Shown here: positions 12,971 through 51,220 of the stretch, one piece after another
Layout: each line of letters begins with the position of its first letter
Numbering within the stretch: the first letter of the stretch is position 1
Origin: Albugo candida
Lineage: Eukaryota
Assembly: GCA_040437565.1 (NCBI GenBank)
Contig: JBDOQK010000033.1
Coordinates: forward strand, 124,001-188,000
DNA length: 64,000 bases
Direction of reading: 5' to 3'
Program-made: the position numbers and the translations under genes
The notes under the pieces: model-generated
Database searches by the model: none
Told to the model about the DNA's origin: nothing
What the model saw: the letters and a program-made list of their open reading frames with translations, nothing else

Positions 12971-13500
12971 ATGGTTCTTGTGACAGCCACACACAGAGCA
13001 CACACTCTTTGTCTTCCTCACACACATTCTAGACTGTTTATGGTATCGATAGAAGGGCTATTTGGTGACGCAAACGATATAATTCCGTCTCAAAGGTTGC
13101 ATTCATAGTCACAACCGGAGATTGGTCTTCTGTAAAGCATGTGATATCACAATCCTTCCTATGCGTTTACATCGCAAAGCACAGTATTCGAAAGCCTTCG
13201 AAGCCATCTTTAAAGCCAATGTTCTATAAACATGATTTCTGGTGTCTTCCTATTGTGTATTGGGTAAAATGCCGTCTTGCATTCCCTTGTTTACCAAGCG
13301 TTGAGTCAATACAAGTAAAGCGTTTGCGACATACAAGTGAACATGCTCCTTTATACTCAATCGTACCTTTACTGGGTACTACTGTACGATGAGCAGCTGT
13401 TGCTTACAGAGCATTAATGAGTAATCGAGTAGAAATATCACTTTGATGACGCCTTTCTTTTGACCAGGGAGCGTAAACATGAGTGTTATAGCCAGCGATT

Positions 13501-14421
13501 ATGCGCCATGTACTGTTATTAGGTTTCCCAAATTTAACTTTCTACGAGACCACTCCATTGCAAGCAGTAAAATCTTCATTTTTCAAAAAGACGACACTTG
13601 CAATGGTCTTATATGCACGAGAACAACAAGCCGCTCTTTTCAGTTGCACAGATTGTTCTCTGCGTAACGCAATTTCGTCACATTTCCGCATTGTTCGTGG
13701 ATTACGACGGCACAACCCGACGATAAAATGCGTCGACAAGGAAAGCTTGGAAACGAAAAAAAAGCAAGACACAACACCGTGCATTTCGAAACGGATCTGC
13801 GCGCAACGTCAGCGTCGTCAGAGTGATCCATACAACGCGATACCCTCACAAAAGCATGAGATGATTCCTCGTGACCGATCCCGGACAATGGGACACAAAC
13901 GAGTACGATTTCAGGATAATAACCTGAATAATGTGGTTCACGTGGTCAACACATATAGTTATGAAGATTTGTTATGCGTTGTTGCAGGATTCACAGGAAA
14001 ATCTTCTGGGTATCAGCTTACGGCGTTCTTAAACCGCTCTGCGCGACAATTGGGCTATTGCACAACGACAAGCATGTTGCAATCCAGGTCAAAGACTTCC
14101 AACTGCTTCACACAAAGCGATGCCAAACGGTGGCGAAGGCTAGCGCTTTATAACTGGAATGCCGAAGACGAGATCTATCATCAAGAGCGCCAGCAACTCG
14201 GTTTTCCGATGCGCGCAAAACTGGCAAATTGGCTCCATCGTCGACGCGATTTACTATCTATCACTGCTGCATTCACATCGGCTGCTAAAGTATTGGAATA
14301 TAACGATCTTACAGCCTTAGTCAACATTGTAAATGGCTGTATCACAGTCGGCAGCTTCCAATTCGATCGTCTCAGTATTTTACAGCTCTGTAATTATCAA
14401 ACTGAGCTGTTCAATCTCTAA
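13501..14421 (+). CDS. Hypothetical protein with an RVxF motif and a C-terminal domain shared with 14609-15898
   Basis: 306-aa ORF containing KRVRF, YEDL, WRRLALYNWNAE and LVNIVNGCITVG, which align with the neighbouring gene. The start could instead be the ATG at 13603. Confidence 0.75.
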   Translation: MRHVLLLGFPNLTFYETTPLQAVKSSFFKKTTLAMVLYAREQQAALFSCTDCSLRNAISSHFRIVRGLRRHNPTIKCVDKESLETKKKQDTTPCISKRICAQRQRRQSDPYNAIPSQKHEMIPRDRSRTMGHKRVRFQDNNLNNVVHVVNTYSYEDLLCVVAGFTGKSSGYQLTAFLNRSARQLGYCTTTSMLQSRSKTSNCFTQSDAKRWRRLALYNWNAEDEIYHQERQQLGFPMRAKLANWLHRRRDLLSITAAFTSAAKVLEYNDLTALVNIVNGCITVGSFQFDRLSILQLCNYQTELFNL

Positions 14422-14608
14422 GCATAGCATAAGTTCCTGGTGTACATANNNNNNNNNNNNNNNNNNNNNNNNNNNNNNNNNNNNNNNNNNNNNNNNNNNN
14501 NNNNNNNNNNNNNNNNNNNNNNNNNNNNNNNNNNNNNNNNNNNNNNNNCATGTGATATATATATAAAATTTGCAAAAATATAATTTTATTTCAGTTACAT
14601 CAGAATTC

Positions 14609-15898
14609 TTACAGCCATCCATCTTCCTCGCTTTCCTGCACAAACTCTAGCTGGCAAAGTTTGGCAATATTCAAAAGTGAGAACGGGATCTCCCCAAAGC
14701 CAACACACGCATTGACAATTTCGACTATCTTCTCCAGTTGCTCTAAATCAGCGGGCGCTTTCCATCCAATCCCTAAATCCGTCACCTCATTAGATTGTTG
14801 AGCATTTCCATGTGTATCCACCAATCCGACAAGATGCTGTTGATCGGTACAAACTCTTTCTTCTGCATCCCAGTCGTGTGATATCACACGTCGCCACATC
14901 CGAATCTCCTCATTCGACAGCTGCGTAACAATCCCAAGCTTTGTATCAGACTGATTTACAAAGGCAAGCGTACGTTCCAAAAAATCTCTTATTTTTCGAG
15001 CTTTACGGCGTCGATCATGTGCTGGAAAACAAGCCACTCGCTCGAAGATATCTTCATAATGCTCCAACTCTATATAACAAGCTGGAGTATTATCGGGAAA
15101 GTACGTTGGTACTTCACGAAAGCTCACGTGTCGAGTAGCATCATGTAAAGCAGCCAATGCGTCATCAGCTAACTGACATGGACTGCTGGATTCCGTTTCA
15201 GTGGGTGAGCCTAATGTGTACCGTTTTTTCTCAAAAACGCGTTTAGTGAAACTTCGTCGTTCCTGCTGAAGATCTCGATCCTTCTCGTCATCGCTGTTGA
15301 ATGCATCATGCATCATGGCAAATTTTAGATACTTTTTCAGTCTATGCTTGGTCAATCTACCACTATCAATGGATCCCCGACTCGAACTAGATTGCTTGGA
15401 TGGAGACAAGATCGCGTGAGAGGATGTAGACGAGTCTTCATCTTCACAATGTTTGTTCATTTCATTTTTAGTACCTCGAGATCTTCGATGTTGACGGCCT
15501 GTAGGATAGGCATGGAAAAATGCTTGTGCGCGTTGGTGGATGGAGCTTTTCGAGTTCTCTTCCACTGTGTCTTCAGTCAGTTCTGCGTCCATCGCATCGT
15601 AACTGTGTCGACGAAACCCAAAAATCTTCTTCACCTTGAGCTCCTCTTTCACATTAAGTTTCTCATTTGAATGGTGGGGCGATGGTGTGTCTTCGAACCC
15701 TTCACCATCGAGTGCCTCGGTCAGCGAAGTCGGCGAAGCTGTGGCCGAACGATGTCGTCCTTTATGTCCTTTCTTGCTCTTTTGCACTTCATCCTCTTCT
15801 TCTTTTGTACTTCGATGTGTTATATCTCTTGCAAATCGCCGAACTCGGTGCCAAGAAGGAAGCGCAAACGATCGACGTCGTGCAAGTCGCTGTTCCAT
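14609..15898 (-). CDS. Hypothetical protein with a disordered basic/Ser-rich N-half, an RVxF motif and a shared C-terminal domain
   Basis: 429-aa ORF with several RRxS motifs, RHVSF, YEDI, WRRVISHDWDAE and IVEIVNACVGFG. Confidence 0.82.
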   Translation of the reverse strand: MEQRLARRRSFALPSWHRVRRFARDITHRSTKEEEDEVQKSKKGHKGRHRSATASPTSLTEALDGEGFEDTPSPHHSNEKLNVKEELKVKKIFGFRRHSYDAMDAELTEDTVEENSKSSIHQRAQAFFHAYPTGRQHRRSRGTKNEMNKHCEDEDSSTSSHAILSPSKQSSSSRGSIDSGRLTKHRLKKYLKFAMMHDAFNSDDEKDRDLQQERRSFTKRVFEKKRYTLGSPTETESSSPCQLADDALAALHDATRHVSFREVPTYFPDNTPACYIELEHYEDIFERVACFPAHDRRRKARKIRDFLERTLAFVNQSDTKLGIVTQLSNEEIRMWRRVISHDWDAEERVCTDQQHLVGLVDTHGNAQQSNEVTDLGIGWKAPADLEQLEKIVEIVNACVGFGEIPFSLLNIAKLCQLEFVQESEEDGWL

Positions 15899-16766
15899 GA
15901 ACGCGTCTCTTGTGTGTTGTCTGAATGTAGATCAACTTTTAGACAGGTTCCCGGTTGAATTGAAGAATGCGGCGTCTTTGTCGCGACAAAAGTCGCAAGC
16001 AAATTTAAGAAAAACAGAAGACTGTAGTGAATGCGATCGGTGAAAATACAAATATGTTATCCCTAAACTCTGTATTGTCGACGTAAAAGCGAGGTCTGGA
16101 CCTTAGTAACACTATGGGGCGTCTGGTTGAGCATGCGGGTTCTTGTGATAACTTATACTTGTATGCTAGACTCAGCCGACTCACTTCGAGCTGCTTTTGA
16201 GAAAATGAAGTGCATAAAAACGACAAAGGAAATACAAGTCACTACCCTTTGCGATATGTACTTAACGTTCGATTTTGGTATTTGATCTGGTTCAGAATGT
16301 ATAGAGCATGCGCCTTTCGAGCTGATCTTCTGCGCGTTCGATGAGTGTACGAGTGTACTGCAATGGTACAGCAGAAGGTCGGGCTTCTTTAGAACTTGCG
16401 TACATTGCTTTTGAGCGACATTTATTCGCGCAGTGACCATTATACACGTTTGTAACTGAAGCAAAGCGGTCTCGAGGACATACTACTACCGTTAATAGAT
16501 CAAATACGAAGCGAATGTTGTTCAGACAATGTTACCATCAAATGTTAGTAACAGTACGTTGATCGATGTGAGCAATTTAACAGAATGACTGCAATGTGAG
16601 TTTTGAATAACAAACATTCACTGCGATGCAATGAACGAACGATTGGTCGATCGGGTATATGATTTATAGCGCTACAACGAGACGAATCTTGAATTATCAT
16701 CGTGTAGTTGAGGCCCTCCCATTATTTTACGAAGACACGATGGTGGGGTCCTCTTGTAAATTATTC

Positions 16767-17353: not shown

Positions 17354-19646
17354 TTACTTTTCCGACAGCGCTTTAAATAAACTCGGAACAACTTCCATGC
17401 GCCACGGTCCAGGCCCAGGCAACACCTCCCCATCGATATTCATACAGTCGATTGACTGATCAGGATCGATTTCAACCGCTTTTACTTTGATATAATTCAT
17501 CAAGGGACTTTCTAGCTCTTTGCCCATAAAGTAAAGCATGATCAATCGAAGTGAGCTTAGTAAGCTTCCTTTCCGCGAAACGATTAAATCCAAGCAACCA
17601 TCAGAAGGATGCGAGAATTGACCATCTGGAGCTGTATTTATGACTCCCACCACCAGAAACTCGCCCTTCTCTTCCTTCCATGCGGATGCGGGGTAGCGTG
17701 TACGACTGGCCGGACTACGCACGGCGTAAGGAGCTCCCGTCCATGACTTTCGAATATCCTTCGGATTCTCATAATCGTAAACATTACCTTCTTCAATCTC
17801 AAATTGATCTGTGGCACCTTCATTCTTGATTTCATCATAGGTACGTAATTCAGGTTGTGGATCCACCGGAACATAGCGAAATGATCCAGTGTGCTTTTTC
17901 GACTTGACTAGGAATTGTTTCACTTTCAAGAAATTGTATCGCAAAGTGCCCAGGTACCGATATCGTTCCGACTCGGCAGCGATATCTCCAGCAATTCCCC
18001 AGCCAAGACCACAGTAACTGTATTGTACACCACCCGATGGCTTGGAACTCGCTACTGTGATGACATCTAGGGGTCTCATCTTGCGTTTGATGATGCAAAA
18101 TAATGCTGCTTCTACCGTGGGGATTCCCACACCCAAGCCAAATGCATTCTGCGTCCCAGCTGAAATTAGCGATAATGGAGTGCTGGCCACAATTTCACGC
18201 CATTCATGTTCCGGTCGACTCAACAATCCGTTCATAAACTCGCAAAGTGTTCCGTCTCCGCCGATAAAAACAATCGCTTCAAATGCGTCCAATGCATCGT
18301 ACTCCCTGCCCATCTCTGTAGCGTGTCCGCTGTACAAAGTTTCTTCGATACAGTAATCGAAATTACCCAAATCGAAAAATATCTTCACTTTTTCCAGCCA
18401 GATTTTCCGTGCTCGACGTTTACCAGAATGCGGATTGATCACAACCTTGATCCGTCTCTTCTCCTGGATAGGAGGAGCTCGGGCTTGCCATCGTACTAAT
18501 TCCTGGATTGTGTTGACCCATTGCGTCGCCACTTTTGGCGGACATGTGAAATCGATCTGATTGTGTACACGTCTCAAAGCGCGCTCACCGGCGCCCTTCC
18601 CTTTTGTAAAGTAATGGATGCGAAAAACTCCGGGTTTATACAGCACTTGAGCGCCAACGATATCGTCTGTGAGAATTTTACCTTTTTCTGCCGATCTACA
18701 ACGCGAGTCAGCAATTGAGACTCTATCACATTGGGAGATTCGAGATTGTTACCGTTTATACCAAGTTATCTCATCTCGATCCATGCGAACATCAACACGT
18801 CTATTCTTTATAAGCATTCTCGCTCGAAATTCCAGTTCGATTGGCGCGTCTCGGCGAGAATACGCCTACAAATAGAGCATTAAGGTGGAAATAACATAGC
18901 AGCAAGCTTCTCTGTGATACCTGTATACGCCGTATGCTCTCTCGCACATAATCATCGGTTGGGTTGTCGAATGTGACATCACCCACTGATGTATTTCGAT
19001 TGAGGAGCGCCGTCTTGGCCAATTCTCGCAATGAATCACGAGCCAGACTGAGTTGGCTCGCATAAGTAACACTACGGCGTTTCGGATGATTTCGACGATG
19101 ATGAAAGTGCCCACTAAATGACTGGTTATCACGAATCCCCTTTTTTTTAACTTTATTACTGACTTGAAGCGGTTCAGAAAGACGAGAATCGTGATCCGCA
19201 TTGCGATAAAACGCATTTTCTCCACTGATATTATCACTCCTATCATGCTCCTCATGATACCGCTCGTCCAATGAACGTGTTCGATGTACTTGCATCGCCT
19301 GCCAGCTTGGAAGTTGCTGAACTTCCTGCGTTGATACTGCAAGCGGTTCTTCATCCTCAATAAAAGACCTGTGAATTGTTTCGCCGGTTCGACTCTCAAC
19401 GTGACTGAACCGCACAGAAGGACTTGAGCTCGTTTCAGCGGCGCTCTTGGGTGTCGATAGTGCACCCTGCATGGTTCTGGCTCCATCACGCGGAGTCCCG
19501 AGTGGGCTGTATTCCTGTGTCGCGTTTTGTGGACTTTTCTTCTCTGACATGAAATCTTCTTTATCACGATTCATTCCAATTTGATCGACTTTTTCGATTG
19601 AATTGACGTTTACTTCCGTACACAGGTCGTTAGAAGCTTCGGTCAT
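17354..19646 (-). CDS. Sphingosine/ceramide kinase-like (DAGK catalytic) protein with a long N-terminal extension and PH-like region, 3 exons
   Basis: INPHSG, GGDGTLCE, ISAGTQN, ESERYRYLG and NIDGE motifs. Introns at 18866-18920 and ~18696-18752 join ORFs 18801-19646 and 17354-18646. Confidence 0.9.
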
Positions 19647-23208: not shown

Positions 23209-23934
23209 ATGACTTTTGGCAGTAATACATCACGGAGATCAACAGAAACGGAAGAAAGAACATTGCAATTTGCATCTCCTTTGCAATATCAACTTGTACG
23301 CGATAATCTAGACGCGTACAAACGAGACGCATTCGAACTACTTCTAAGGCGGTATGCGGGAGATGATTTGAAATCTCCCGGCTGGCGACATAACACGGAA
23401 GTCGATGGGGTGAAGACGCTTTATGGTGAAGTTGAAAATAATAGCTGGCAGACTACATTGACCACTGCAGATATACCTCAAAAAGCACATGTGGTAGCGA
23501 GTATTTTATTAGATAAAGAAAAGATGAGCCAATACGATGATACGGTTGACACTATCAACAGCTTGGAACAACTTGACGAGAACACGGAGCTCAAGATTGT
23601 CTGCTGTAAAAGCGTCTTTATGACAACACCACGTGATATATGTGTTGTTACAACATACACATGCGAAGAAAGTGGTCGATATCTGATTGTCACGCGCTCA
23701 GTGAATCATCCGAATGGAACGCAAAAAGGCTACACGCGAGCTTATATCTATCTATCTGGTTACATCATAACACCGGATCCAGCAGATAGTAACAAGTGTC
23801 ACATTGCAATGATTGCGCATATCAATCTCAGCGGATTAGTGCCCCCATTCATCTCCAAGTACGCAGGTCAGACTGTTCCCATCAGAATGGTGCGAGCGAT
23901 CCGCGACGTTGCTACGAAGGCGGTAGACACGTAG
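23209..23934 (+). CDS. START-domain lipid-transfer protein
   Basis: W...DGVK, TTPRDICV, RSVNHP..KGYTRA, SGYIITP and INLSGLVPPF motifs. Confidence 0.88.
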   Translation: MTFGSNTSRRSTETEERTLQFASPLQYQLVRDNLDAYKRDAFELLLRRYAGDDLKSPGWRHNTEVDGVKTLYGEVENNSWQTTLTTADIPQKAHVVASILLDKEKMSQYDDTVDTINSLEQLDENTELKIVCCKSVFMTTPRDICVVTTYTCEESGRYLIVTRSVNHPNGTQKGYTRAYIYLSGYIITPDPADSNKCHIAMIAHINLSGLVPPFISKYAGQTVPIRMVRAIRDVATKAVDT

Positions 23935-25774: not shown

Positions 25775-27424
25775 ATGGTATCGGATTTTCTGTGTTTTCC
25801 GCTGGGCGTCTCACTTCCTCCAGAATCGACTCATTCGATCTCAGTGTCTCTTCCTAAATGGACTCACGTGATCGAATACGAGAAGGGAAACCCAGACGTA
25901 CTTGAAGCTTTGAAAGGAGGGTATCCTCGCTTCGTATTTCATCCCTACGTGAAAGAATTACTTCGCATCTTGAAAACCATTTACGTCGCAGAAAACAAAA
26001 TGCTTCCGTCCGAATTGCTTCAAATTCTTCCAACAAAACAAGTAGCCATGCGTTTGTATGCGTTTCTTACCTGTACAGATGCTAATTGCGACAGTGAGCA
26101 CCCATTTGAACGCGTGCAAATGCTTACTTCTGACCGCTTGACCGCTATTCATGCGGTCTCATTTCCCGCTTCCCTGAGCGATAAAGCGAAATCAAGCTGG
26201 CAGCATTCTGGAGAGATTATATCGTCCCGTCACGCGCTTGCTTTGCTGCAAAGTATAAGGCAAGATTTAGATGATGTTACCATTGACATGCATTCCGCAC
26301 CGATCCATCACCAACTGTGTAAACGTATTGCTCAGCTGTACACGCAAGAGCCCGAGTTAGTAGTGCCGCCTGAATTTGTATTTGTGTATCCCACGGGGAT
26401 GGCGGCGATATTTGCGGCTGTGCGATTGCTGAAAGCGTATCACGAAGCGCGGCAAATCGGTCAAAAGTCGAAAGCCATTTTGATAGGATTTCCGTATGTA
26501 GACACACTCAAGATACTGGAAAGGAAGGAATGGTGCAAGGATGGTGTTTATTTCCTCCCGCATGTCACCGAGCCATCGTTTTACTCTGATTTGGAAACGC
26601 TATTACAAAGAGAAGAAACGTCGATCTTTGGGATTTTCACAGAATTTCCTGGAAATCCGCTGCTGTTGGGCTGTGATGTGGATCGAATTTCACAACTTGC
26701 GCGTAAATACAACACGTATTTTGTAGTGGATGATACGATTGGATCATATAACGTGAATTTGCTGCAGCATCAATGCGCTGATATTGTTGTGACATCCCTT
26801 TCCAAGATATTTAGCGGCACGGCCACAGTTATGGGTGGGAGCTTGATTCTCAGTCCTTGTAAGAACGAAGAGGCTGTAGCATCGTGGTATCGTATGCTGC
26901 GGACCGGCCAGGATGATTATCTCATGGTCGATGATGCTGGAGTGTTGCTGGAAGCATCGGCAGCGCTACAATCGCGATTGAACAGAGTCAATGCTTCAGC
27001 ACAATTCATTGCTGAAAATCTACGGAATTCTTCTTTGATAGAAAATGTATATTATCCAGCGTTTGATGAGAATACCATGGATACATACGTGAGATATCAG
27101 TCTCCGTTAAGAGCAACGACGCAAGCTTTTGGTCCATTGATGTCGATATATCTGAAAGAATCAAGCGATGGACAGGATTCCGATGGAATGAATTCCAATG
27201 CTCAGCTATTCTACGATGCTCTGAATATCGCAAAAGGACCCAGTCTGGGCACCAACTTTACTCTTTCATGTCCGTATACACTGCTTGCTCACTATACGGA
27301 GCTTGATTTTGCCGAACGTTGTGGCGTGGACCGAAAACTAATCCGGATTTCCATTGGATTGGAGCATCAAAACGATATCTGGCGCATGATTACGAATGCA
27401 CTTGACGCGTGTAGCGAACGCTGA
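25775..27424 (+). CDS. Cystathionine gamma-synthase (STR2-like PLP enzyme)
   Basis: GYPRF, YPTGMAA, GFPYVDT, EFPGNPLL, VDDTIG, SLSKIFSG (PLP lysine), KGPSLGTNFTL and IRISIGLE motifs. Confidence 0.9.
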   Translation: MVSDFLCFPLGVSLPPESTHSISVSLPKWTHVIEYEKGNPDVLEALKGGYPRFVFHPYVKELLRILKTIYVAENKMLPSELLQILPTKQVAMRLYAFLTCTDANCDSEHPFERVQMLTSDRLTAIHAVSFPASLSDKAKSSWQHSGEIISSRHALALLQSIRQDLDDVTIDMHSAPIHHQLCKRIAQLYTQEPELVVPPEFVFVYPTGMAAIFAAVRLLKAYHEARQIGQKSKAILIGFPYVDTLKILERKEWCKDGVYFLPHVTEPSFYSDLETLLQREETSIFGIFTEFPGNPLLLGCDVDRISQLARKYNTYFVVDDTIGSYNVNLLQHQCADIVVTSLSKIFSGTATVMGGSLILSPCKNEEAVASWYRMLRTGQDDYLMVDDAGVLLEASAALQSRLNRVNASAQFIAENLRNSSLIENVYYPAFDENTMDTYVRYQSPLRATTQAFGPLMSIYLKESSDGQDSDGMNSNAQLFYDALNIAKGPSLGTNFTLSCPYTLLAHYTELDFAERCGVDRKLIRISIGLEHQNDIWRMITNALDACSER

Positions 27425-31097: not shown

Positions 31098-34000
31098 ATG
31101 AATAGAGTCGCTATTTCGTGGACGGGTCAATCGATTCAGAAGCTTGCATTATATCGACGGCGTCATAATCCCATCCCATTACTCTCTTTGGAACATATTC
31201 CATTTCTATTCCTTTATGCGTACGCAATCTCACAATCGTATCACACTATCGGAGAGCCTTATGCGTTCGCACTCGAAGAGTATCAAAGCACGCATCCGAT
31301 CCCTACGACCACATCCGACCTTGCATCGAAAACGCTCTCCCAAGGGCTCGTGCGTGAGGACACAATCAATGCTTCTTCGTCGTCAAACGCGATCTGGGAG
31401 GAAGAAGTACCGCTACCCAATCCATACCTTCCGGCGATCGGCCCACTTCTCTTCTTAATCGGAACGCTCCTTTCGCATGCTTTAATTATACTCTTGCAGG
31501 TTTGGTTTGTTCGCGTACGTGCATGGGTCCATTTCACATCAGTCAACACGCTGGAAGAAGCCGCTTTTGTCGTCATTCAACCTCGGGCTTACCGGGGCAA
31601 AAGTGACATTGTACCGCTACAATCAGATTTGATCCATGGCGAGAAATTTTATTATTTCATGTTTCAAAAGCATAAATATATCGCTCGCGTTGGCGTATCG
31701 AGTGATAAAAAAACGGATCAAAATGGTGCATTTATATGTTTCGAAAAGCTAAAGGCACCGACATCGCTCTCCATACAAACGTATGTATCGAGTCGTGGGC
31801 TACAGACGAAAAGGAGCGATCAAGTCAACCATATCGATCCTTTGCTCCAGCGATACGGTCCGAATGTATTTGAGATCCCTCGACCCAATTTTGTGGATAT
31901 GTTTAAGCAACAATTACTGGAGCCTCTCACAGTCTTCCAGATATTCAGTGTTTGCTTGTATATGCTGGACGAATATTGGCAGTATTCGCTGTTTACACTC
32001 GCTATGATTGTCATGTTTGAAGGTGTCACTGTTATGGGCCGTCTAAAAAATCTGCAAACGCTTTGTGGAATGAGCAATGAAGCTCGTAATGTGTACGTCT
32101 TCCGAGACGGAAAATGGATCATCATCAAATCCGATCGACTTGTGCCCGGTGACATTGTGTCTATCACACGAGACACGAAAGAACAAGAAAACTCGAAAAC
32201 CAGAGCAAATGTGGTTCCATGTGATTGCTTGCTTTTGGATGGCTCCGCTGTGATGAATGAAGCCACACTCACGGGTGAAAGTGTTCCTCAGATGAAAGAA
32301 GCAATTCGGAATAAAATGAATCCTGAAGAACTCGCACAAGCGCTCGATATGAAATCTCTACACAAAGTCCACGTGCTATTTGGCGGAACAACTGTCATGC
32401 AGAGTGATTCACGGAGTACGTCAGAGGAAGGCGACACACGTGCGGGTACAAACATCCCGTGTCCTCCCGATGAAGGATGTACGGCGTATGTCCTTCGTAC
32501 TGGCTTTAGTTCCTCACAGGGAAAACTACTGAGAATGATTGAGTTTTCGAGTGGCAAAGTAAGTGGCAGTTCGATGGATGCAATTGGCTTGGCACTTCTT
32601 CTGCTCGTGTTCGCGTTGATATCGAGTGGTTATGTACTCCACCAAGGAATCGCTCAAAAAGGCAAAATCACATTTGAACTGCTTTTGAGATGCATTCTCA
32701 TCATAACAAGTGTCATTCCCGCTGAGCTTCCGATGCAAACCGCAATGGCTGTCAATAGCGCTTTATTATCGCTTGTAAAGCTGTCGATATTTTGCACAGA
32801 ACCGTTCCGAATTTCGTTGGCTGGAAAAGTTGATATTTGTCTCTTTGACAAAACGGGAACACTCACAACCGATCAATTGACAGCGATCGGTGTCGTCTGT
32901 GACGATGAAATCTCGAGGTCGAAAGACATTGTGGGTCACGTTCCTATGGCAACCGCGAGCTTAGACACGTCACTCGTGCTTGCTGGATGTCATTCTCTCG
33001 TGCAGATTGACGGTAAATTGATTGGTGATCCCGTAGAAGAAGCATCCATCCGCGCGGTCGATTTTGAATATGACTCTCAAAGTCGTCGATATCGTCCGAA
33101 TAAGGAGAAAGAGCGTCATTGGGACGGCAGCGTAGCATGGGAGGGGAAGGATGTATCGATTGATATCCTTCATCGCAACCATTTTGCATCGAAATTACAA
33201 CGGATGAGTGTGCTTGCTCGTGTGCATTTTGGCTCAAATACGTGCATTCGGTCACTGGTGAAAGGCAGCCCCGAGACGATTTTTGAGCTGTTAAAGCCCA
33301 ACACAGCGCCGGATTGGTACTGGCCCACCTACCAGAACATGGCGAAGCGCGGAATGCGTGTTTTAGCACTCGCGTACAAGGATGTTGATTCATTATCGAA
33401 GCAGCAACTTGCTGAAAAACCGCGTGCATGGGCGGAATCCGATTTACAATTTGCGGGATTTGCAGCTTTCCAGTGCCTTGTGCGTAGAGACAGTGCTGAT
33501 ATCATCAAATGTCTGAAAGAGAGCTCTCATGCGGTATCAATGATCACCGGTGATGCCACACTCACCGCTGTGCACGTGTCACGTGAAGTGGGTATCCTTT
33601 CGCGTGCAGCTTTACTTTTGGATGTGAAAGACTCCTCTTCGTCACCCATTTGGACCTTACTCGAGTCGGAGACAACCACTCCAAATCACTTCCACATCGA
33701 TGCATATCAATCTGGCGATTTCGCAAAGCTTTCGAGAAAATATGATTTGTGTCTGAGCGGGAAATCCCTCTCCGTAGCTGCAAAAATCGATCCCGAAAGT
33801 GTGTGGAAACAGCTTCATCACGTTCGTGTATTTGCACGAATGACTCCCGAACTGAAAGAGAATGTATTGACATATTTGAAGAAATCGGGTCATTACACGC
33901 TCATGTGTGGTGACGGTGGAAATGATGTCGGAGCCCTGAAACAAGCACATATTGGCGTCGCGCTATTGAGCGGTTTTGGATCGGCAAATGCCGATAAGAG

Positions 34001-35396
34001 TATCACTGGAGCTTCAAAGTACAAAAAGGAAGTCATCAGTTCGATTGGAAATCGTCAAAGTCTCATGAAACTTCACACTTCGGCGCTCAAGAAATTACTC
34101 GTTCAGAGAAAAATCGATCATTCGAAATGTCGCGAGAAAGAAGATTTGGTCGCGCTTTTGCTCCAAGAAGCTTCGAAAATGACCAAACCGAAAAAGCCGC
34201 AAGTGGTAAAGGCACTCACAACAGAAGAGAAGAAGGAAATGATGAAGAAAAAACAAGCGGAAATAGAAGCAGACGTACGCGCACGTGAAGTTCGAGGAGA
34301 GTCGTTTGCTCGTGTTCGGGCTCTTGCGGCTTTTGCCAAACGAGAGGCAGCAGAAGCAAAACGTCTCAAGCAAGAACGCACCGGTGCTAAAGGTTTTGCA
34401 GCCTTTGCGAATAACGCGGCGATGCAGCAATATATGGATGATTTCGAGGATGGAGAGCTTCCTATGGTGAAACTCGGCGATGCTTCTATTGCATCTCCTT
34501 TCACGTCCAGAGCGCCATCTATCAAAGGCTGTGTCGATATCATCCGTCAAGGCCGATGTGCGTTAGTTACAACGACGCAAATGTATCAGATTCTCGCCAT
34601 CAATTGCCTTATCAGCTCGTATTCCTTATCGGTCTTGTATTTGGATAAAGTAAAGTACTCCAATGCTCAGATGGTGACACTCGGAATTGTATCGACAGTT
34701 GCCAGTGTGACGCTAAGTCGAGCCACTCCTCTGCCCACACTGTCTCCTGTTCGACCATTGACGAGTATTTTTTGCCCAGCGCTTTTTCTCAGTCTGGCGG
34801 GACAATTTGTGCTTCATTTGGGCTGTATGATTTATCTCACCAACCTCGCCAAGACGTACCTCGCAAACGAGTCGATAAGTACGTCGACGAACGCACTCGG
34901 TATTGCTGAATTCAAGCCAAATGTCATGGGAACTGTGATTTTTCTGGTCAATGGAGTACAGACAGTAAGTGTGTGTGCGGTGAATTACAAAGGCCGACCA
35001 TTTATGAAAAGTATGACTGATAATCCCGGGCTTTTGTACTCACTTGGCATCAGTATCGTCGGTGTATTTCTCCTCTGCACGGAAGCATTGCCAATATTTA
35101 ACGAGGTGCTTCAGATTGTACCGATGCCTGATCCACGATTTGCTCGCCAACTGACGTTTATATTGGCGTTGGATGTGTGTGGCGCGTTTGTGTGGGATCA
35201 GATCTGTCTGTTTGTATTTGCTCCCAAGATTTTTATTGCTTCTATTAGAGCAATTACGTTGAGGGATTTATGGCAATCGCTGAAAATGACGGTGATTGCT
35301 TTATTGGTAATTTACGTATTGTCGAATATCGATTATGAAGAAATTGAGCGTCAGCAGCAGCTTATGGAGCAACAGAAACTCGCAGGTACAAATTGA
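31098..35396 (+). CDS. ATP13A1: P5A-type ATPase (ATP13A1/Spf1)
   Basis: LDEYWQYSLFTL, TGES, PAELP, DKTGTLT, ITGD, MCGDGGNDVGALKQAH, DASIASPFTS and NYKGRPF motifs. Confidence 0.96.
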   Translation: MNRVAISWTGQSIQKLALYRRRHNPIPLLSLEHIPFLFLYAYAISQSYHTIGEPYAFALEEYQSTHPIPTTTSDLASKTLSQGLVREDTINASSSSNAIWEEEVPLPNPYLPAIGPLLFLIGTLLSHALIILLQVWFVRVRAWVHFTSVNTLEEAAFVVIQPRAYRGKSDIVPLQSDLIHGEKFYYFMFQKHKYIARVGVSSDKKTDQNGAFICFEKLKAPTSLSIQTYVSSRGLQTKRSDQVNHIDPLLQRYGPNVFEIPRPNFVDMFKQQLLEPLTVFQIFSVCLYMLDEYWQYSLFTLAMIVMFEGVTVMGRLKNLQTLCGMSNEARNVYVFRDGKWIIIKSDRLVPGDIVSITRDTKEQENSKTRANVVPCDCLLLDGSAVMNEATLTGESVPQMKEAIRNKMNPEELAQALDMKSLHKVHVLFGGTTVMQSDSRSTSEEGDTRAGTNIPCPPDEGCTAYVLRTGFSSSQGKLLRMIEFSSGKVSGSSMDAIGLALLLLVFALISSGYVLHQGIAQKGKITFELLLRCILIITSVIPAELPMQTAMAVNSALLSLVKLSIFCTEPFRISLAGKVDICLFDKTGTLTTDQLTAIGVVCDDEISRSKDIVGHVPMATASLDTSLVLAGCHSLVQIDGKLIGDPVEEASIRAVDFEYDSQSRRYRPNKEKERHWDGSVAWEGKDVSIDILHRNHFASKLQRMSVLARVHFGSNTCIRSLVKGSPETIFELLKPNTAPDWYWPTYQNMAKRGMRVLALAYKDVDSLSKQQLAEKPRAWAESDLQFAGFAAFQCLVRRDSADIIKCLKESSHAVSMITGDATLTAVHVSREVGILSRAALLLDVKDSSSSPIWTLLESETTTPNHFHIDAYQSGDFAKLSRKYDLCLSGKSLSVAAKIDPESVWKQLHHVRVFARMTPELKENVLTYLKKSGHYTLMCGDGGNDVGALKQAHIGVALLSGFGSANADKSITGASKYKKEVISSIGNRQSLMKLHTSALKKLLVQRKIDHSKCREKEDLVALLLQEASKMTKPKKPQVVKALTTEEKKEMMKKKQAEIEADVRAREVRGESFARVRALAAFAKREAAEAKRLKQERTGAKGFAAFANNAAMQQYMDDFEDGELPMVKLGDASIASPFTSRAPSIKGCVDIIRQGRCALVTTTQMYQILAINCLISSYSLSVLYLDKVKYSNAQMVTLGIVSTVASVTLSRATPLPTLSPVRPLTSIFCPALFLSLAGQFVLHLGCMIYLTNLAKTYLANESISTSTNALGIAEFKPNVMGTVIFLVNGVQTVSVCAVNYKGRPFMKSMTDNPGLLYSLGISIVGVFLLCTEALPIFNEVLQIVPMPDPRFARQLTFILALDVCGAFVWDQICLFVFAPKIFIASIRAITLRDLWQSLKMTVIALLVIYVLSNIDYEEIERQQQLMEQQKLAGTN

Positions 35397-36036: not shown

Positions 36037-37689
36037 TTACGGTGGTGTAGTAGAGGAGACTGGCGCGGGATTAGTTGGCGTGGTTGAAGAAGGCTGTCCT
36101 TGTGGCGGGTTGACATTTGATACCGAAGGTGGAAGTGTAGGTGCGTTATTGGGAGTCGGTAGCAATGGAACCGTATTGGTAGGTATCGGTGGAGGTGAGT
36201 CGACAGGAGCGGCTGGCGGAGTCGTATTGACAGGTGGCAATGGGACCGTGTTGATGGGCGTTGATGGAGATGATTCGACTACTGGAAGTTCAATGCCATT
36301 TGAATCGACTGGCCAGACTTGAGATGCTTCAGATGCTCGATGCGTATCCTTGTAACTTTCCGCGACTCTTTCTTCTGCGGCTTGTCTCTCCACTTCTGGA
36401 TTTTCCGATCGCACTGGATAACGATTGTCTCGATAATTAGGTTGCTGAGAACGATCGTCTCTCGCGTATCCATTTGAAGTAGAAGTTGGATACGTATTTC
36501 CCCCATTCCTTCTCATTGCCTGCAATTCTTCAGCCTTGACATCTTCTTCGTCGTAGTTTCTCAGATTTTGTTTGGAGAGTCGGCTATCTTGTAGATCGTC
36601 CTCTTTGTATCTCGGAGCGCCTCTCGGTTGCTTGGGATTGGGATTTTCTTGTTCATTTTCATCCTCCGTATGCTTTTGCGCCTTTATCGGTCCTGTACCC
36701 TCATCGGGATCAGTGTCATCATAGTCGTTTGCTGCCATTTTTCGATTTGACCTTTTATCTTCAGTATTTTCGTCCTCTTGCTCACCAGTGGAATCAGCTT
36801 CCTTTGTACTCTCTTCTGCTCTTTTCTTTTTGTGTGACATCTCTTCACTTTCATCTTTTTGATTATCTGATTCGGAATCATTAGCATCTTCTTTTCTTTT
36901 GTTTCTCTTTGACTCGGAAGTATCCGTTGAATCTTCAGCGGAATCTGTGTCATCATTTTCTTCTTCTGAAGCCTTCCTTTTCGATTTCTTCTTTCCGGAC
37001 TCATCGTCCTGACTGTCATCTCCTTCAGACTCTTCTTCCGATTTCTTTTTCGATTTCTTCTTTCCGGACTCATCGTCCTGACTGTCATCTCCTTCAGACT
37101 CTTCTTCCGCTTTCTTTTTCAATTTCTTCTTCCTAGACTCATCACCTTCTCCAGCTGATTCAGACTCCTCCGAACCTCTGTCCACTCCCTTCTTCTTTGG
37201 CTTCTTCTCCTCTTCATTATTATCTGATGGATCTGACTCATCTTCGTCCGACTTTCTCTTCGATTTTGATTTCTTCGCTTTTACCGTCGGATCATCAGAA
37301 TCATCTTCTACTTCCTCTTCACTTTTGTGTTTTCTCGCACCACTCGATTTATGTTTGTCCGCTGTCTCATCGTCATCCGATGCTGCGGATTCTTCTTTAC
37401 TGGAAGCACGTGCTCCCTTTGTACCCGAATCCGATGAATCATCCTCGGAAGCTCGATTCTTGTGGCGATCTGACTTGCGTGGATGATCATCATTGCTATC
37501 TTCCGCTTCGTCGTCCTTTGCGAGTCTTCGACTTCTCAGGCTTTTGGCATTGTATGTCGACTCCTTCTGACGGAGCGGTAGTTTTAATACTGTGAGAGCT
37601 GTCAATTTACGGTTCTCTTTCAACGCGGAAGCGGCTTCCGTAGCGGCTATTGCGGCGAGAAGTGTGCTCGTGATGACGAAAACTTTCAT
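36037..37689 (-). CDS. Large secreted D/E/K/S-rich protein with a Pro/Thr-rich C-terminus
   Basis: Signal peptide MKVFVITSTLLAAIAATEA, RKL and RSRRL followed by an acidic stretch, and 23-aa tandem repeats. The stop overlaps a possible gtaagc donor, so the gene may extend further. Confidence 0.82.
   Translation of the reverse strand: MKVFVITSTLLAAIAATEAASALKENRKLTALTVLKLPLRQKESTYNAKSLRSRRLAKDDEAEDSNDDHPRKSDRHKNRASEDDSSDSGTKGARASSKEESAASDDDETADKHKSSGARKHKSEEEVEDDSDDPTVKAKKSKSKRKSDEDESDPSDNNEEEKKPKKKGVDRGSEESESAGEGDESRKKKLKKKAEEESEGDDSQDDESGKKKSKKKSEEESEGDDSQDDESGKKKSKRKASEEENDDTDSAEDSTDTSESKRNKRKEDANDSESDNQKDESEEMSHKKKRAEESTKEADSTGEQEDENTEDKRSNRKMAANDYDDTDPDEGTGPIKAQKHTEDENEQENPNPKQPRGAPRYKEDDLQDSRLSKQNLRNYDEEDVKAEELQAMRRNGGNTYPTSTSNGYARDDRSQQPNYRDNRYPVRSENPEVERQAAEERVAESYKDTHRASEASQVWPVDSNGIELPVVESSPSTPINTVPLPPVNTTPPAAPVDSPPPIPTNTVPLLPTPNNAPTLPPSVSNVNPPQGQPSSTTPTNPAPVSSTTPP
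36980..37120 (-). repeat. Two 69-bp (23-aa) tandem repeats KKxEEESEGDDSQDDESGKKKSK
   Basis: Near-identical units at ~36980 and ~37049. Confidence 0.85.
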
Positions 37690-38206: not shown

Positions 38207-41200
38207 TTATAAAATAGTTTGCCACTTTGGACGCAATTGGCTGTCAATAGAACGGATTAAAGATCGAGGAGCATACACACTTTTCCCCCTTCCACCATGC
38301 AGATTTTCGTCCAGTGTAAAGCATAATAAAAGCACATTGATTGTGGTCTCATATATCTAATAACAGCAATCATTCATAAGCGATTTCATTTCCGAGTAAA
38401 CACGTACGGTCATAAAAGCGGTAGCGATGCTGTACGACATGGAAGCAATTGCTAGCAGCGGTAGAACCGGTGAATACATCTATCAAACAGTTGAGCGCAT
38501 AGAATCCACCTTAAGTAAGAGAATTAAATACCTGACTCGATAGAAACCATGCAATCAAACATGTGGTCGAGCACACTATAAGCTTCCCAATAAACACGGA
38601 AGAATGTCCAATTCGATCGACAGAGCCAAAACGCAGTAAATTTGAAGTCAATAGCGTGAACGCCAGCTGTTTTTCGTACACATTACGTAATGCTCCCATT
38701 TTCTACCACAAAAGCGTACCTTTGCGGATCGGAAGTAGCCGCTTCCTTGGATAGCTGTGATGTACATTGCCTCCTTGCAAAAGTATTTCAGACAGCAGTC
38801 AAAGCACCACACACAACACTGATAGAGAATGTCAGTACTCAGACTCGCCACTATATCATGACACATACACAGCAGCATTTGGCAAAGCAGNNNNNNNNNN
38901 NNNNNNNNNNNNNNNNNNNNNNNNNNNNNNNNNNNNNNNNNNNNNNNNNNNNNNNNNNNNNNNNNNNNNNNNNNNNNNNNNNNNNNNNNNTAGAACGGAT
39001 TAAAGATCGAGGAGCATACACACTTTTCCCCCTTCCACCATGCAGATTTTCGTCCAGTGTAAAGCATAATAAAAGCACATTGATTGTGGTCTCATATATC
39101 TAATAACAGCAATCATTCATAAGCGATTTCATTTCCGAGTAAACACGTACGGTCATAAAAGCGGTAGCGATGCTGTACGACATGGAAGCAATTGCTAGCA
39201 GCGGTAGAACCGGTGAATACATCTATCAAACAGTTGAGCGCATAGAATCCACCTTAAGTAAGAGAATTAAATACCTGACTCGATAGAAACCATGCAATCA
39301 AACATGTGGTCGAGCACACTATAAGCTTCCCAATAAACACGGAAGAATGTCCAATTCGATCGACAGAGCCAAAACGCAGTAAATTTGAAGTCAATAGCGT
39401 GAACGCCAGCTGTTTTTCGTACACATTACGTAATGCTCCCATTTTCTACCACAAAAGCGTACCTTTGCGGATCGGAAGTAGCCGCTTCCTTGGATAGCTG
39501 TGATGTACATTGCCTCCTTGCAAAAGTATTTCAGACAGCAGTCAAAGCACCACACACAACACTGATAGAGAATGTCAGTACTCAGACTCGCCACTATATC
39601 ATGACACATACACAGCAGCATTTGGCAAAGCAGGAGACTGCTACATTGGTGTCCAAATCGTTCCGTTTTGCAAGATTGTGATATACCGAACGCGACGTGC
39701 GGATGAATGGGACAGCTGCCGATGTGAGTGCAAGCGTCCCCAAATGATACGAAAAGGTCGATCGAAGCGCGTATGTGACAGGATCTCTCCATTTGTTGAG
39801 TTTTTTACGTGCTGCCACGTTGTCAAATTCTGAAAAGTACCAAAATGATACTGCTGTTGCAGTGATCATATCGCCGATGGACAGTACAAACGCGATACTC
39901 CAATACATACCCAACAAATGATATAGAAAGAGCCATCGTAATTTCGTGTTCACTTGGAAAGACTCGGTCACCACGTGAATGGTGGAGGGTGAAGACGCAG
40001 CGATTCTGGCAATTCGTGATGTTGTGGTTCCAGCTCCGAAAATGGACAAGCTGACCTGAATTCCCCAACCGTATAACGCTATGATCATGAGAAATATCAA
40101 AAATGGTACCAGGAGAAGTTTCTTCAGCTGCAGTAATACACGCGATGCGTGCGTGATGAAAATTCCAGCCATGAATAAACGCTGGATCATGAATACGACA
40201 ACCAGAAAGAACAACACGGCGCTACAGGATAGAACAACAGCTAACAGTTGCAATGATTGCTTCGTTCTATGGTCGTGGCGGTACGAATACGGGTCCAAAG
40301 AAGCCTGCAAGGAACGATAGCTCCCATAAATGAGAATCGCTTGAACGCCAACCATTGAAATTCCCAACACGACACATCCACAAATTCGAAGAAAAAGAAG
40401 GTAAATAAACGACGTCACTAATGTGATCCCACAGCTAATGAGTAAGATACTCCAACACTGCAAATGATTGGAATCAACACGTGATCTCAAGTAAGAAAGA
40501 GCGCTCACCTCACTCAAAGAGCCCACAAATCGACCGATGGAATCCTGAAACAAAGTCTCGACAAGTTGTTCCGAGCTGACTATCGGAGAAATCAGTGTTT
40601 ATCAATGCGCAAAACGCACACGCACCATCGACAGGAGCACATATATACGCATTTGTATTGGTCGCATACGTTTCGAATTCGACCTCTTCCGTTTCGGTGG
40701 AATCACGTGCTTCCTCGACACTATCAGCGTTAGTAATAGGCAAATCAACTCGTAAAGTATCTCCGTCTTCGTCCGGACACTCGTCGACGCAAACTCCAAA
40801 TTCAGGATTTCGTTCAAGATCGGGAAAATAGAGATACGAGTCTTTATCACAAGTATTTCCTTGGAAATCGACGCTATTGCGTATATATTTCGCAAAGGAA
40901 CGATTGGAATCGCGAGTGAATGCGTAACACGCCAATACAATCATTCCAATCCAATACAAGAAAAACAACACAAGTGCGATGAGATCGGTGCATGATCGCC
41001 TGGTTTTAGGACCTTTGAATCGAGACAGTGTGGAGGAGACAGCACTTTGAGATGTTAATAGCTGTACGTCTTCTTTCTCATCCAATTCGCTGCTTTCTGA
41101 CGATAATTTACGTCCAAATAGTGACACATTTTCGGAATTCACGCGACGGTAATCGCTTGCACGCGGCAACGATCTTATGCGTTGACTCTGTGTGTGTTGA

Positions 41201-41551: not shown

Positions 41552-42772
41552 TTACGCTTGAGCGGTTTGTTCGATTTGCTGGGGAGAGGAAGACGAATGG
41601 GTGACCATGATGGGAGGTTGATGAGCGGGTTTCCCAATGAGACCCAAGCGGGTAAACATATCCTGATCTTGCTCGAATTCTGGATTAGATGTGGTTAGTA
41701 GCCGATCACCAGTGAAGACGGAATTGGCACCGGCGAGGAATAAAAGTCCCTGTTCTGCTTCGGTGAATGACATACGACCAGCACTGAGTCGGACCATTGT
41801 CTTGGGCATGACGATTCGTGCGGTGGCAATAGTCCGGGCCATATCAAAAGCACTTACAGGTGGAATATCTTCTTCATACAGCGGAGTTCCAGGCACAGCT
41901 ACTAGGGCGTTCACAGGGACTGATTCAGGATGTTGCGTCATAGTCGCAAGGGTATGAAGTAAGGCGACCCGATCATGTTCCCCTTCTCCAAGCCCCAAGA
42001 TGCCCCCACAACATACAGAAATTCCAGCCTTTCGAACATTTTGCAAGGTAGCCAATCGATCGTCATAGGAGCGTGTCGTGATGATTTTCGCGTAATGCTC
42101 GCGACTTGTATCGAGGTTATGATTGTACGCTGACAAACCTGCCTCCTTGAGTGCGGTTGCCTGGTCCAAAGTCAGCATTCCTAACGTGCAGCATACTTCC
42201 ATATCGAGAGCTTTGACCTGTCGGACCATTTCCAGAACGTGTTTGAAAGCATTCTTCTTTCCGACCTCACGCCACGCTGAGCCCATGCAGAAACGCGTAC
42301 TTCCAGCATTCTTTGCACGTTTCGCCATTTCCAAAACATCTTCGACCTAGAATAAAATATGAGCTTTTTGCTTGAGAAATGGATGCAAAATCGATAGAAA
42401 ACCTTTTTTGTTGGCTCTGGCTTGACAAATGTGCGATGATGCGACGATTGAGAACAATATTTGCAGTCTTCAGTGCATCCGCCAGTTTTTATGGAGAGAA
42501 GAGTGCATTGTTGAACTTGACGAGAGTTGAAGTAGAGGCGATGTACCGTAGCTGCTTGATAAATTAATTCCAATAGTGGTTGGTGATATATGTCGCGAAC
42601 TTGTTCCAGAGACCAATCCTGTGATAACGAATAATACACACTCATGTTTGTATACTTGCGAGGTATACGTCCGACGTACCGTGCGTACGCTGGCGAATGG
42701 CTCGGAGGTCGGTTTCTGTGTTATAATGTTTCGTATTTTCATAAGAGGTGGTAGTTGCGAGCGTATGCGCAT
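41552..42772 (-). CDS. BIO2: Biotin synthase (radical SAM), 3 exons
   Basis: [25 protein letters not shown] and RLSAGR motifs. Introns 42619-42679 (VRT|DWS) and ~42347-42401. The start is at 42772 or 42742. Confidence 0.95.
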
Positions 42773-46856: not shown

Positions 46857-48973
46857 ATGAATAGCTTTCAAGATCGCGAGTCGGTATACCCGCAAGTTGA
46901 TCCGTCTAAAGCGCTCTTCGACGATGACACAGTGATGATGGATAACTTTCACGATCAAATTGTGATGCGTTCCGCTTCGGTCATTTATACAAATCAAAAG
47001 CGCGAGAATTCATTCGATTCCACTGTCATAACAAATTGCACGCAAAGCGCTTGTTCAGAGTTTCCATCTGTGCAATTCACAATGGAAAACAAGAAAAATA
47101 ACTTTCAATCACTCGCCGATGACTTCCCATTGTCAGTACTTCCTTACTCCCACGCAATCGGACAGCAAAGTCGTTCAGTGAAATCGAGAGATATGTATTC
47201 CTCTTCGTACCCTCAAAGCGGGCCATTCGTACCGATATTTGATGCGAATAAGATACCGACTACTCAGCAGAGATGTAATCTGACGGAACGTACGAGCACT
47301 TTTGTGGATGAGAAGTTGTACGATCCGGAGGCTACTGTTCGTCAAAGAGCAGAATCCGAGCTCACAAAGTCGACAGCAGTGGATTTCACGGCATTGGATT
47401 GTAAGAATGAAATGACAGAAATCAACGATCTCCAAGAACAGATAATGCATCGAAAGACTCAGTATCGACTTGATTTGGATCGATGGCAAATGGAAGAGAT
47501 GCAAGTTCGTCCGCAGTTGTTATGTATCCTTTCATTGTATCGATATGTTGATTGTAGCAAATACAACGCGAATTAGTGCAACATTCACGAGAGCGGTATC
47601 ACAAACTCAAGAAGAATGAGAATCAGTGGGGATGTCTATTCGATCGAGATGGGTGAGTCGCTATGTCACCATGTCGAGAGAGTCATCTAATCTTCGGAGT
47701 AGAGTTGTTTGCTTTCGTCCGGGAGAACGGCGTCATGCGATATTGTCCGAGCAGCGGTTTCATCAAGTCAATCTCCGCAAGGTACCGCGATCTTCGAATC
47801 AGTATGTCGTCAATCCTTTACAGAAACGGGTTGTAGGCTTTACAGCGTGGTGGGGATGCAAGCTGGTTTCAAAGACGAATGGGCGAATGTCAAAACGTAT
47901 ACCAGGACTTCATGGTGCGTTACTATCCTAATTGAGCGCGTCGTGACTCAGCCCTATTAGTATGAAGAGGCTCGACATAAACAAGCACTGGCGCTCGCTC
48001 GGCTCGAGATAGGTAACAACGATCCAATTCTTTACGCAGATGGAAGCCATGTCCTGAACTGAAGGACTATGTCAGACTCTGTCTTTAGTGCTTTTCCAAT
48101 CCTCGGAAATCGATTCATCTTGATCCAACTGCTTGGAAAAGGAGGAAATGGAGAAGTTTGGGACGTTCTCGATTATGCGAACAATAAGTGTCGCTGTGCT
48201 CTCAAAATCTCATCGTTATTTGATCACGCACAAAAAGAACATCGAACGCACAGAGTGAGCCGAGTTGTCTCCATACAATTCGATTCGCTCTTATTTTGGT
48301 TTCAAAATAGGAATTGGACCACGAGAATATCGTGAATGTTGGTAGCTCGATATATTGCATAGAATTCAATCAAAAGCTTTTTGCTGCATTCACAATCGAT
48401 TTGGTGGATATGGATTTGCATCGGCTTATTGATTTGCGGGGAAAGCTTGACGAAGTCACTGCGCTTACGATTCTTCTCGCTCTCTTGAAGGCGTTGGCGT
48501 ATCTCCACGGACAAAGGGGTATCGCCCATTACGACCTGAAACCATCCAACATCCTGATCAATGAGAAGATGCAAGTCAAGCTGACGGATTTCGATTTGGC
48601 GAGAAACGTTCACACAAAGATTTCTTCTCATCATGAGGGTACCCTCAAGTATCTTCCTCCAGAGACGTTCACCGACCCTCACGGAACAGCAGAAAAAGCA
48701 GATATTTGGATGGTTGGCGTCATCTTTCACATGATGCTGTCAGGCAAGCATCCACTGTACTGTGATAAAGTCACACTCAAAGAGATTCGATGTATCGCTT
48801 CCCGCTACAGCGATACTGTTTGCCCGTTGGCTCAGGATGCTTCCTCACAGCTTTCCGATTTGTCGAAATGGATTTTATCAGAATGTTTGCGGGCAGAGCC
48901 AACGTATCGTCCAACAGCTCAACAATTGTTACAAGTACTTTTGTATGCACACAATCAAGCTAGTTCTTTTTAG
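46857..48973 (+). CDS. Tousled-like Ser/Thr kinase (divergent), about 7 exons
   Basis: Coiled-coil N-region, DSVFSAFPILGNRFILIQLLGKGG, HAQKEHRTHR|ELDHENIV, HYDLKPSNIL and GTLKYLPPE, all TLK hallmarks. Several GT-AG introns lie between 47505 and 48310. Confidence 0.75.
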
Positions 48974-51144: not shown

Positions 51145-51220
51145 TTTAATGTTTATTCCGAATGTAGTGAACTTTAGTGTGTCACGAATTCGCTGTGGAA
51201 TCTTTTTTTGCTACGAGTTT

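Follow-up and report, generated by a model that had tools for sequence, protein, structure and literature searches.

We analysed a 64,000-nucleotide stretch of Albugo candida DNA (contig JBDOQK010000033.1, positions 124,001 to 188,000 of the forward strand; hereafter the window, to which all positions refer) with a focus on two convergent genes, A and B, whose products share a C-terminal helical domain preceded by an RVxF motif of the kind that docks onto protein phosphatase 1 (PP1). The window is oomycete DNA with a G+C content of approximately 42%. The stop codons of the two genes face each other across a run of N.

13501-14421, forward strand: gene A, an open reading frame (ORF) of 306 amino acids, a short "A-type" member of the family (from the ORF and its translation)
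14449-14548, no strand: assembly gap of 100 N between the stops of A and B
14609-15898, reverse strand: gene B, an ORF of 429 amino acids, a long "B-type" member of the family (from the ORF and its translation)

Both ORFs were found exactly where the original prediction, made from the letters alone, had placed them. Housekeeping genes occupy the flanks, with a member of the phosphoenolpyruvate (PEP)-mutase/isocitrate-lyase family upstream and a diacylglycerol-kinase-like gene downstream. In two other data sets, contigs bridge the 100-N gap with only 21 bases, which places the stops of A and B approximately 108 bases apart. No further joint occurred in any contig across 13300-16100, so that nothing suggests introns. 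In one run, separate contigs covered gene A (13424-14448+) and gene B (14594-16028), which is a hint at most, because these contigs are of unknown kind and cannot show transcription.

ORF A was 100% identical to an annotated Albugo candida protein (an identical entry with six member sequences in the protein collection) and 73% identical to AlNc14C390G11276 of A. laibachii. The best match of ORF B in the protein collection was A. laibachii AlNc14C390G11277 (80% identity), and no entry identical to B was found among the 5.8 billion proteins of that collection; the A. candida annotations in that collection may lack gene B or model it differently. In A. laibachii, the orthologue of A begins at the residue aligned with Met35 of ORF A (13603). 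The true start of gene A may therefore be Met35, and the first 34 codons (within 13501-13605) may be a 5′ leader. A reading of the ORFs as something other than real genes, or of their likeness as chance, could appeal to the fact that the stretch appears in no RNA run on record and that B has no identical entry; against it, both ORFs are intact and conserved in A. laibachii at the identities just given, homologues occur in other oomycete genera, and the likeness between A and B is highly significant. The conserved ORFs, the significant A/B alignment and the relatives effectively refute that reading, and we regard its chance of being right as next to nil.

The likeness of the two proteins lies in their C-terminal parts. 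BLASTP aligned residues 175-300 of A with residues 312-418 of B (E = 6e-9 over 126 amino acids), and a profile of five A-type sequences matched a profile of 10 B-type sequences over 172 columns running from the RVxF motif to the last helix (hhalign, probability 98.65%, E = 4.9e-16). All five collinear blocks that the original prediction had listed were present in the translations of A and B and fell within the hhalign columns. The N-halves, which had been described as unrelated, were not significantly similar: the next-best BLASTP piece had E = 0.87. Judged from their sequences, A and B are thus diverged paralogs, homologous over the C-terminal 170 amino acids or so, with a likeness well beyond chance; the pairwise alignment, on which the original prediction had made itself depend, was highly significant at both levels of comparison.

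The shared region follows a fixed order. Approximately 20 residues after the RVxF motif comes a helix block, Y-[ED]-D-x-L-x-x-V-x-x-F, followed by the block K-V-x-E-F-L-E-R-S and by a block with an invariant Trp and the string W-R-R-L-x-x-H-D-W. A variable linker (acidic in the B-type, an extra helix in the A-type) then leads to the final domain block, L-x-x-L-x-x-V-V-N-x-C-x-x-F-G-x-x-x-F. The domains were delimited as follows.

13960-14391, forward strand: helical domain of A, residues 154-297 (AlphaFold2 model, and hhalign against the B-type profile)
14654-15058, reverse strand: helical domain of B, residues 281-415, with six helices in the AlphaFold2 model

With the family alignment as input, AlphaFold2 predicted six helices for residues 250-429 of B (predicted local distance difference test, pLDDT, 75.1; predicted template modelling score, pTM, 0.68), with the acidic linker between helices 4 and 5 modelled at low confidence. 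For residues 128-306 of A, the helix order of B was predicted with one addition (pLDDT 80.3, pTM 0.74), a long helix at residues 237-258 that replaces the acidic linker. The WRRL..HDW helix is nearly invariant in the family, as are the residues of the B domain Y281, F291, R297, F306, W335, R336, R337, W343, N396, G402 and F406.

Searches with the domain, of the kind that the original prediction had called for, gave no known family. A Pfam scan of A and B gave no match; when 22 members were compared with Pfam at E ≤ 10, we observed scattered single matches and no family common to more than three members. The family profile gave one chance match among PDB sequences (E = 2.4, search at E ≤ 10). 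Fold searches with the A and B models were likewise negative: Foldseek gave no PDB match at E ≤ 0.001, VIA-align against 48,161 chains gave best Z scores of 3.7 (B) and 5.3 (A) to generic helical structures, below the level that the tool treats as meaningful, and the ESM Atlas gave no usable match. The domain is unnamed, as had been claimed, and without an assignable solved fold, which does not in itself prove a new fold.

One named group of PP1 subunits was weighed against these results. PPP1R15 proteins (GADD34/CReP) resemble the family in the order of their elements (RVxF, then a helix with an aromatic-acidic start ending in R-F, and later R-x-W-x-R-L), so that A and B could be divergent PPP1R15-like subunits of an eIF2-alpha phosphatase. 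This resemblance found no support here. None of the 22 members matched the PPP1R15 Pfam model (PF10488) at E ≤ 10, no PPP1R15 chain appeared in the PDB profile search (E ≤ 10), and no PP1-PPP1R15 entry appeared in the fold searches; moreover, the functional core of PPP1R15 is a short helical peptide, unlike the six-helix domain. The identity was rejected for want of any Pfam, PDB-sequence or fold match, although HMMER filters drop many weak matches and could hide a very remote relation, and we consider it very improbable.

A full HMMER pass of B against 1.84 billion representative proteins yielded 18 proteins at E ≤ 0.001, of which 11 reached E ≤ 1e-10; by this count the family is rare. A word-indexed profile search, in which only 8000 candidates were scored, recovered at least six proteins and undercounts the family. 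Word-indexed searches supplied its named relatives: AlNc14C390G11277 and AlNc14C390G11276 of A. laibachii, FI667_g6763 of Globisporangium splendens and Poli38472_013274 of Pythium oligandrum. Every named member thus belongs to one of four oomycete species (Albugo candida, A. laibachii, G. splendens and P. oligandrum), in agreement with the predicted oomycete family, and the family is apparently restricted to oomycetes; this scope rests on the named members, P0004 and P0008-P0024 being unnamed representatives. Over the aligned region, identity to B was only 20-40% among members and approximately 85% for the A. laibachii orthologue.

The maximum likelihood tree was built from 25 domain sequences (P0011, a near-duplicate of P0005, was left out). 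Gene A grouped with a third Albugo paralog (support 97/94), and this pair joined the P. oligandrum protein and P0022 (support 93/91). Gene B was placed among 11 long forms that include the G. splendens protein (support 92/86). Because A groups with P. oligandrum and B with Globisporangium-type long forms, the A/B split is, on this tree, older than the divergence of Albugo and Pythium, whereas the duplication that separated A from the third paralog looks Albugo-specific. The third paralog itself is of the A-type (ABG067_006800 in A. candida and AlNc14C64G4565 in A. laibachii; P0026/P0027), is 246-251 amino acids long, carries KVRF or RKVRF, and has the same domain. The A. laibachii pair bears consecutive gene numbers (AlNc14C390G11276 and AlNc14C390G11277); these gene names suggest that A and B are adjacent in that species too. 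The original prediction had proposed an old inverted duplication. The tree bears out its age, and an inversion in place cannot be told apart from a later juxtaposition.

The RVxF motif lies at one aligned place in the family. In a wide form, its consensus is [RK]-x0-1-[VI]-{P}-[FW]; two reports give a narrow form, [KR][KR][VI]x[FW] (PMC10454571, PMC11728760). The motifs of A and B, and a pair of aromatic residues downstream of the motif of B, occupy the following positions, the two RVxF coordinates being exactly those predicted.

13897-13911, forward strand: RVxF of A, KRVRF, residues 133-137, in a conserved column, fitting the narrow and the wide consensus
15119-15133, reverse strand: RVxF of B, RHVSF, residues 256-260, in a conserved column, fitting the wide consensus only
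15098-15106, reverse strand: TYF of B, with two aromatics 6-7 residues downstream of the RVxF Phe, a candidate phi-phi motif read from the alignment

Of the 26 members, 22 match the wide consensus at a single aligned place that precedes helix 1 by 17-25 residues; one of them has KHVQW, the F-to-W change that the motif allows. When 45-residue windows of these proteins were shuffled, only 5.3% held such a motif. Conservation of the Phe column reaches 90% or more between variable flanks. The original prediction had staked itself on this conservation among homologues, and on this point it held. In the AlphaFold2 models the motif lies in predicted coil (pLDDT 56-64 in A and 46-69 in B) beside helices at approximately 90, and is therefore predicted to be exposed in a disordered or extended stretch in both paralogs; docking motifs usually sit like this, in coil of low to middling confidence beside a confidently folded domain. 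PP1 partners often follow the spacing RVxF-x5-8-phi-phi, and most B-type members have two aromatic or aliphatic residues 6-7 positions past the Phe, a candidate phi-phi motif.

Consensus strings are published for SILK, a second PP1 docking motif, and for MyPhoNE, also an auxiliary one (PMC11728760, PMC10454571). Neither SILK ([GS]IL[RK]) nor MyPhoNE (RxxQ[VIL][KR]x[YW]) was found N-terminal to the RVxF of A or B. In two of the 26 members, the divergent P0018 and P0024, [GS]IL[RK] occurred, in the form SILK or GILK, at one aligned place upstream of RVxF, where P0021 has PVLK; each occurrence was reached in 1% of shuffles of the protein's own N-terminal part. These two members resemble proteins of the inhibitor-2 type, in which SILK and RVxF are combined; unlike inhibitor-2, the family has the combination in only those two members and in neither A nor B, and no sequence relation was seen.

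RVxF-anchored regulatory and targeting subunits of PP1 include PPP1R proteins such as MYPT1, spinophilin and PNUTS. As in these, the RVxF of A and B lies in a disordered stretch beside a folded domain, with a likely phi-phi pair 6-7 residues on, and orthologues and paralogs alike retain the motif; unlike in these, the domain matches no ankyrin, PDZ, CBM21, FHA, LRR, Pfam or PDB entry. A conserved N-terminal RVxF followed by a C-terminal domain, in that case a GYF domain, also characterizes GEXP15/CD2BP2, a PP1 regulator of Plasmodium and other eukaryotes, and CD2BP2-like proteins are reported in oomycetes (both from PMC10454571). The A/B family shares with GEXP15/CD2BP2 the conserved RVxF N-terminal to a domain and differs from it in having no GYF match in Pfam.

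A modelled complex was used as a separate line of evidence. Metagenome contigs were scanned for a motif specific to the PP1 catalytic subunit (PP1c), which gave 119 loci with eight intact intron-free ORFs, seven of which were aligned. One of these metagenomic PP1c proteins (L019, 323 amino acids) was paired with residues 250-429 of B. The interface score ipSAE (interaction prediction score from aligned errors) was 0.41 in three of three runs and 0.00 in all three controls, with contact agreement of at least 36% between runs, and the tool's verdict was "weak support." Of 78 solved complexes, 51 reach the ipSAE mark applied, as do 2 of 108 mismatched pairs.

Several observations weigh against PP1 as the partner of the motif. 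Four of the 26 members, all in one clade, are without the canonical Val/Ile (KRLRF in P0010; KRTRF in P0012, P0016 and P0017). By eye, only 5 of the 26, A among them but not B, fit the narrow consensus, and proteins in general often match the wide one. MyPhoNE was found in none of the 26 members, and at least two SILK matches anywhere in 26 shuffled proteins arose in 11% of trials. The complex itself must be read with care: scores of 0.60 or less came from only 5 of the 78 solved complexes and from all four passing mismatches (of 180), the partner had a pLDDT of 33-36 and an uncertain fold (alignments were not used in the complex test), the PP1c was a metagenome stand-in and not the Albugo protein, and, per the tool, most passes in the weak band are wrong except where the guess was already likely. 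In addition, so many PP1-RVxF complexes have been solved that the pass may be a memory of the motif. The modelled pass adds little beyond the conservation argument.

In a rival explanation, the family is real and [KR]-x-[VI]-x-F is not a PP1 dock, but a structural element or the site of another partner. In the clade that has Thr or Leu in place of Val, K/R and Phe are retained, as a constraint unrelated to PP1 might require; B fails the narrow consensus; the KRLRF of P0010 would also fit a cyclin-type RxL motif; and the complex pass was weak. Set against this, conservation falls precisely on the three RVxF anchor positions and includes the permitted F-to-W exchange, the models place the motif in coil that does not pack against the domain, SILK occurs upstream in a sub-branch, and the controls of the complex test scored 0.00. 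We give this explanation an appreciable chance, well below even. Our assessment leans, by a small amount, toward A and B being long-separated paralogs within a new, lineage-restricted family of endogenous proteins, regulatory or targeting, that interact with PP1 through a docked RVxF. The original prediction had proposed PP1 regulatory subunits; the conservation of the motif favors that proposal, and the complex with the stand-in PP1c lends it weak support (0.41 compared with 0.00).

Outside the domain, the N-terminal arm of B-type proteins is long and rich in Ser/Thr and holds two well-conserved basophilic sites; their C-terminal end is also characteristic. The corresponding features of A and B were these.

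15866-15880, reverse strand: RRRSF of B, residues 7-11, in which S-F-x-[FLI]-x-S-W is kept in 10 of 11 covering B-type rows
15599-15613, reverse strand: RRHSY of B, residues 96-100, basophilic and kept in A. laibachii
15248-15262, reverse strand: ERRSF of B, residues 213-217, within D-L-x-x-[DE]-R-x-S-[FI], a block shared by all 13 B-type rows
14612-14629, reverse strand: acidic-Trp tail of B, EEDGWL-COOH, with the B-type end EEDGW[ILC]-COOH
13813-13824, forward strand: RRQS of A, residues 105-108, basophilic, in the N-half and also present in the A. laibachii orthologue

All basophilic sites that had been claimed were found, as RRRSF, RRHSY and ERRSF in B and RRQS in A. The first conserved site has the consensus [RK]-R-x-S-F-x-[FLI]-x-S-W in 10 of 11 covering rows (RRRSFALPSW in B). 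Control by a protein kinase A (PKA)-type kinase, which had also been suggested, would fit in part: only this first site (RRxSF) agrees with R-R-x-S, and the best kept one, [DE]-R-x-S-[FI], has Arg at -2. The [DEH]GW[ILC] end was present in 17 of the 26 members and absent from all A-type members.

PP1 owes its specificity to hundreds of unrelated regulatory subunits. If the A/B proteins belong among them, the exposed RVxF would dock from its disordered stretch into the RVxF groove of the PP1 catalytic subunit, and the six-helix domain approximately 20 residues on would recruit a substrate or set a location, or would lie on the PP1 surface and shape its specificity. In the B-type, the Arg-x-Ser-Phe-type phospho-acceptors of the disordered arm could be a regulatory input or substrates of the bound PP1, and the EEDGW[ILC] tail is probably a second short docking motif for another partner. 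A-type proteins (A, the third Albugo paralog and the P. oligandrum protein) lack the arm and tail additions and have the extra helix instead. We put forward only tentatively, and with more doubt than confidence, the full picture of oomycete-restricted PP1 holoenzyme subunits built on a helical fold unseen in solved structures, in which the B-type combines three inputs (multi-site basophilic phosphorylation, RVxF docking and a partner of the acidic-Trp tail) and the A and B genes have stood tail-to-tail in Albugo since a duplication that preceded the Albugo-Pythium divergence.

A and B could instead be secreted effectors that mimic host PP1 regulatory subunits, in the manner of the effector Pi04314, which reportedly binds PP1c through a KVxF-type motif. 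Albugo is a biotroph, and Pi04314, an RXLR effector of Phytophthora infestans, interacts with plant PP1c isoforms (PMC4740116) and is the known link between oomycetes and PP1. The A/B family shares the oomycete origin of Pi04314. It differs in that Pi04314 is secreted and aimed at host PP1c, whereas the family looks intracellular: by eye, no signal peptide was evident in B or the long forms, whose N-termini are charged and not hydrophobic. The family also extends to P. oligandrum and G. splendens and is conserved across genera, unlike fast-evolving effectors. We hold the effector explanation to be extremely unlikely.

The literature searches made here gave no paper on the A/B family, on its four gene identifiers, or on endogenous oomycete PP1 regulators of such a kind. 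A conserved lineage-restricted family with a new domain would offer a concrete start for mapping PP1 signalling in oomycetes and, if PP1 binding is true, a lineage-specific handle on that signalling in a group of major pathogens of plants and of animals. Because the searches, within their reach, gave no member in hosts, the family could be a selective point of attack. Should PP1 binding fail, a well-defined unnamed domain family of modest interest would remain, worth a database entry.

Scaffold gaps, each of exactly 100 N, interrupt the window 13 times, 14449-14548 included, and several neighbouring ORFs look cut by gaps or introns. The ordinary neighbours are listed by position.

6248-7267: malate/lactate dehydrogenase
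11538-12287: PEP mutase/isocitrate lyase family
17354-18313: diacylglycerol-kinase-like
23209-23934: START domain
25775-27424: Cys/Met pyridoxal-phosphate enzyme
39594-40355: choline-transporter-like
41552-42328: biotin-synthase-like radical S-adenosylmethionine enzyme
48410-48973: protein kinase fragment
51149-52537: NIPA Mg transporter
60404-63241: Uso1/p115

Three further ORFs stood out. The forward-strand ORF at 31098-35396 encodes a P-type ATPase of 1432 amino acids with a weak internal match to the RNF34/RFFL SAP domain (E = 2e-6, 27.8 bits, cut-off 27). On the reverse strand, a single ORF at 59175-60365 joins a BMT5-like rRNA methyltransferase domain to C2H2 zinc fingers. Also on the reverse strand, the ORF at 36037-37689 (550 amino acids, no Pfam match) has a signal-peptide-like start, long acidic/Lys/Ser-rich repeats (KKKSKKKSEEESEGDDSQDDESG-like units) and a Pro/Thr-rich tail; its product is a candidate secreted protein, and nowhere in the window is the AT skew stronger than in this region (-0.30).

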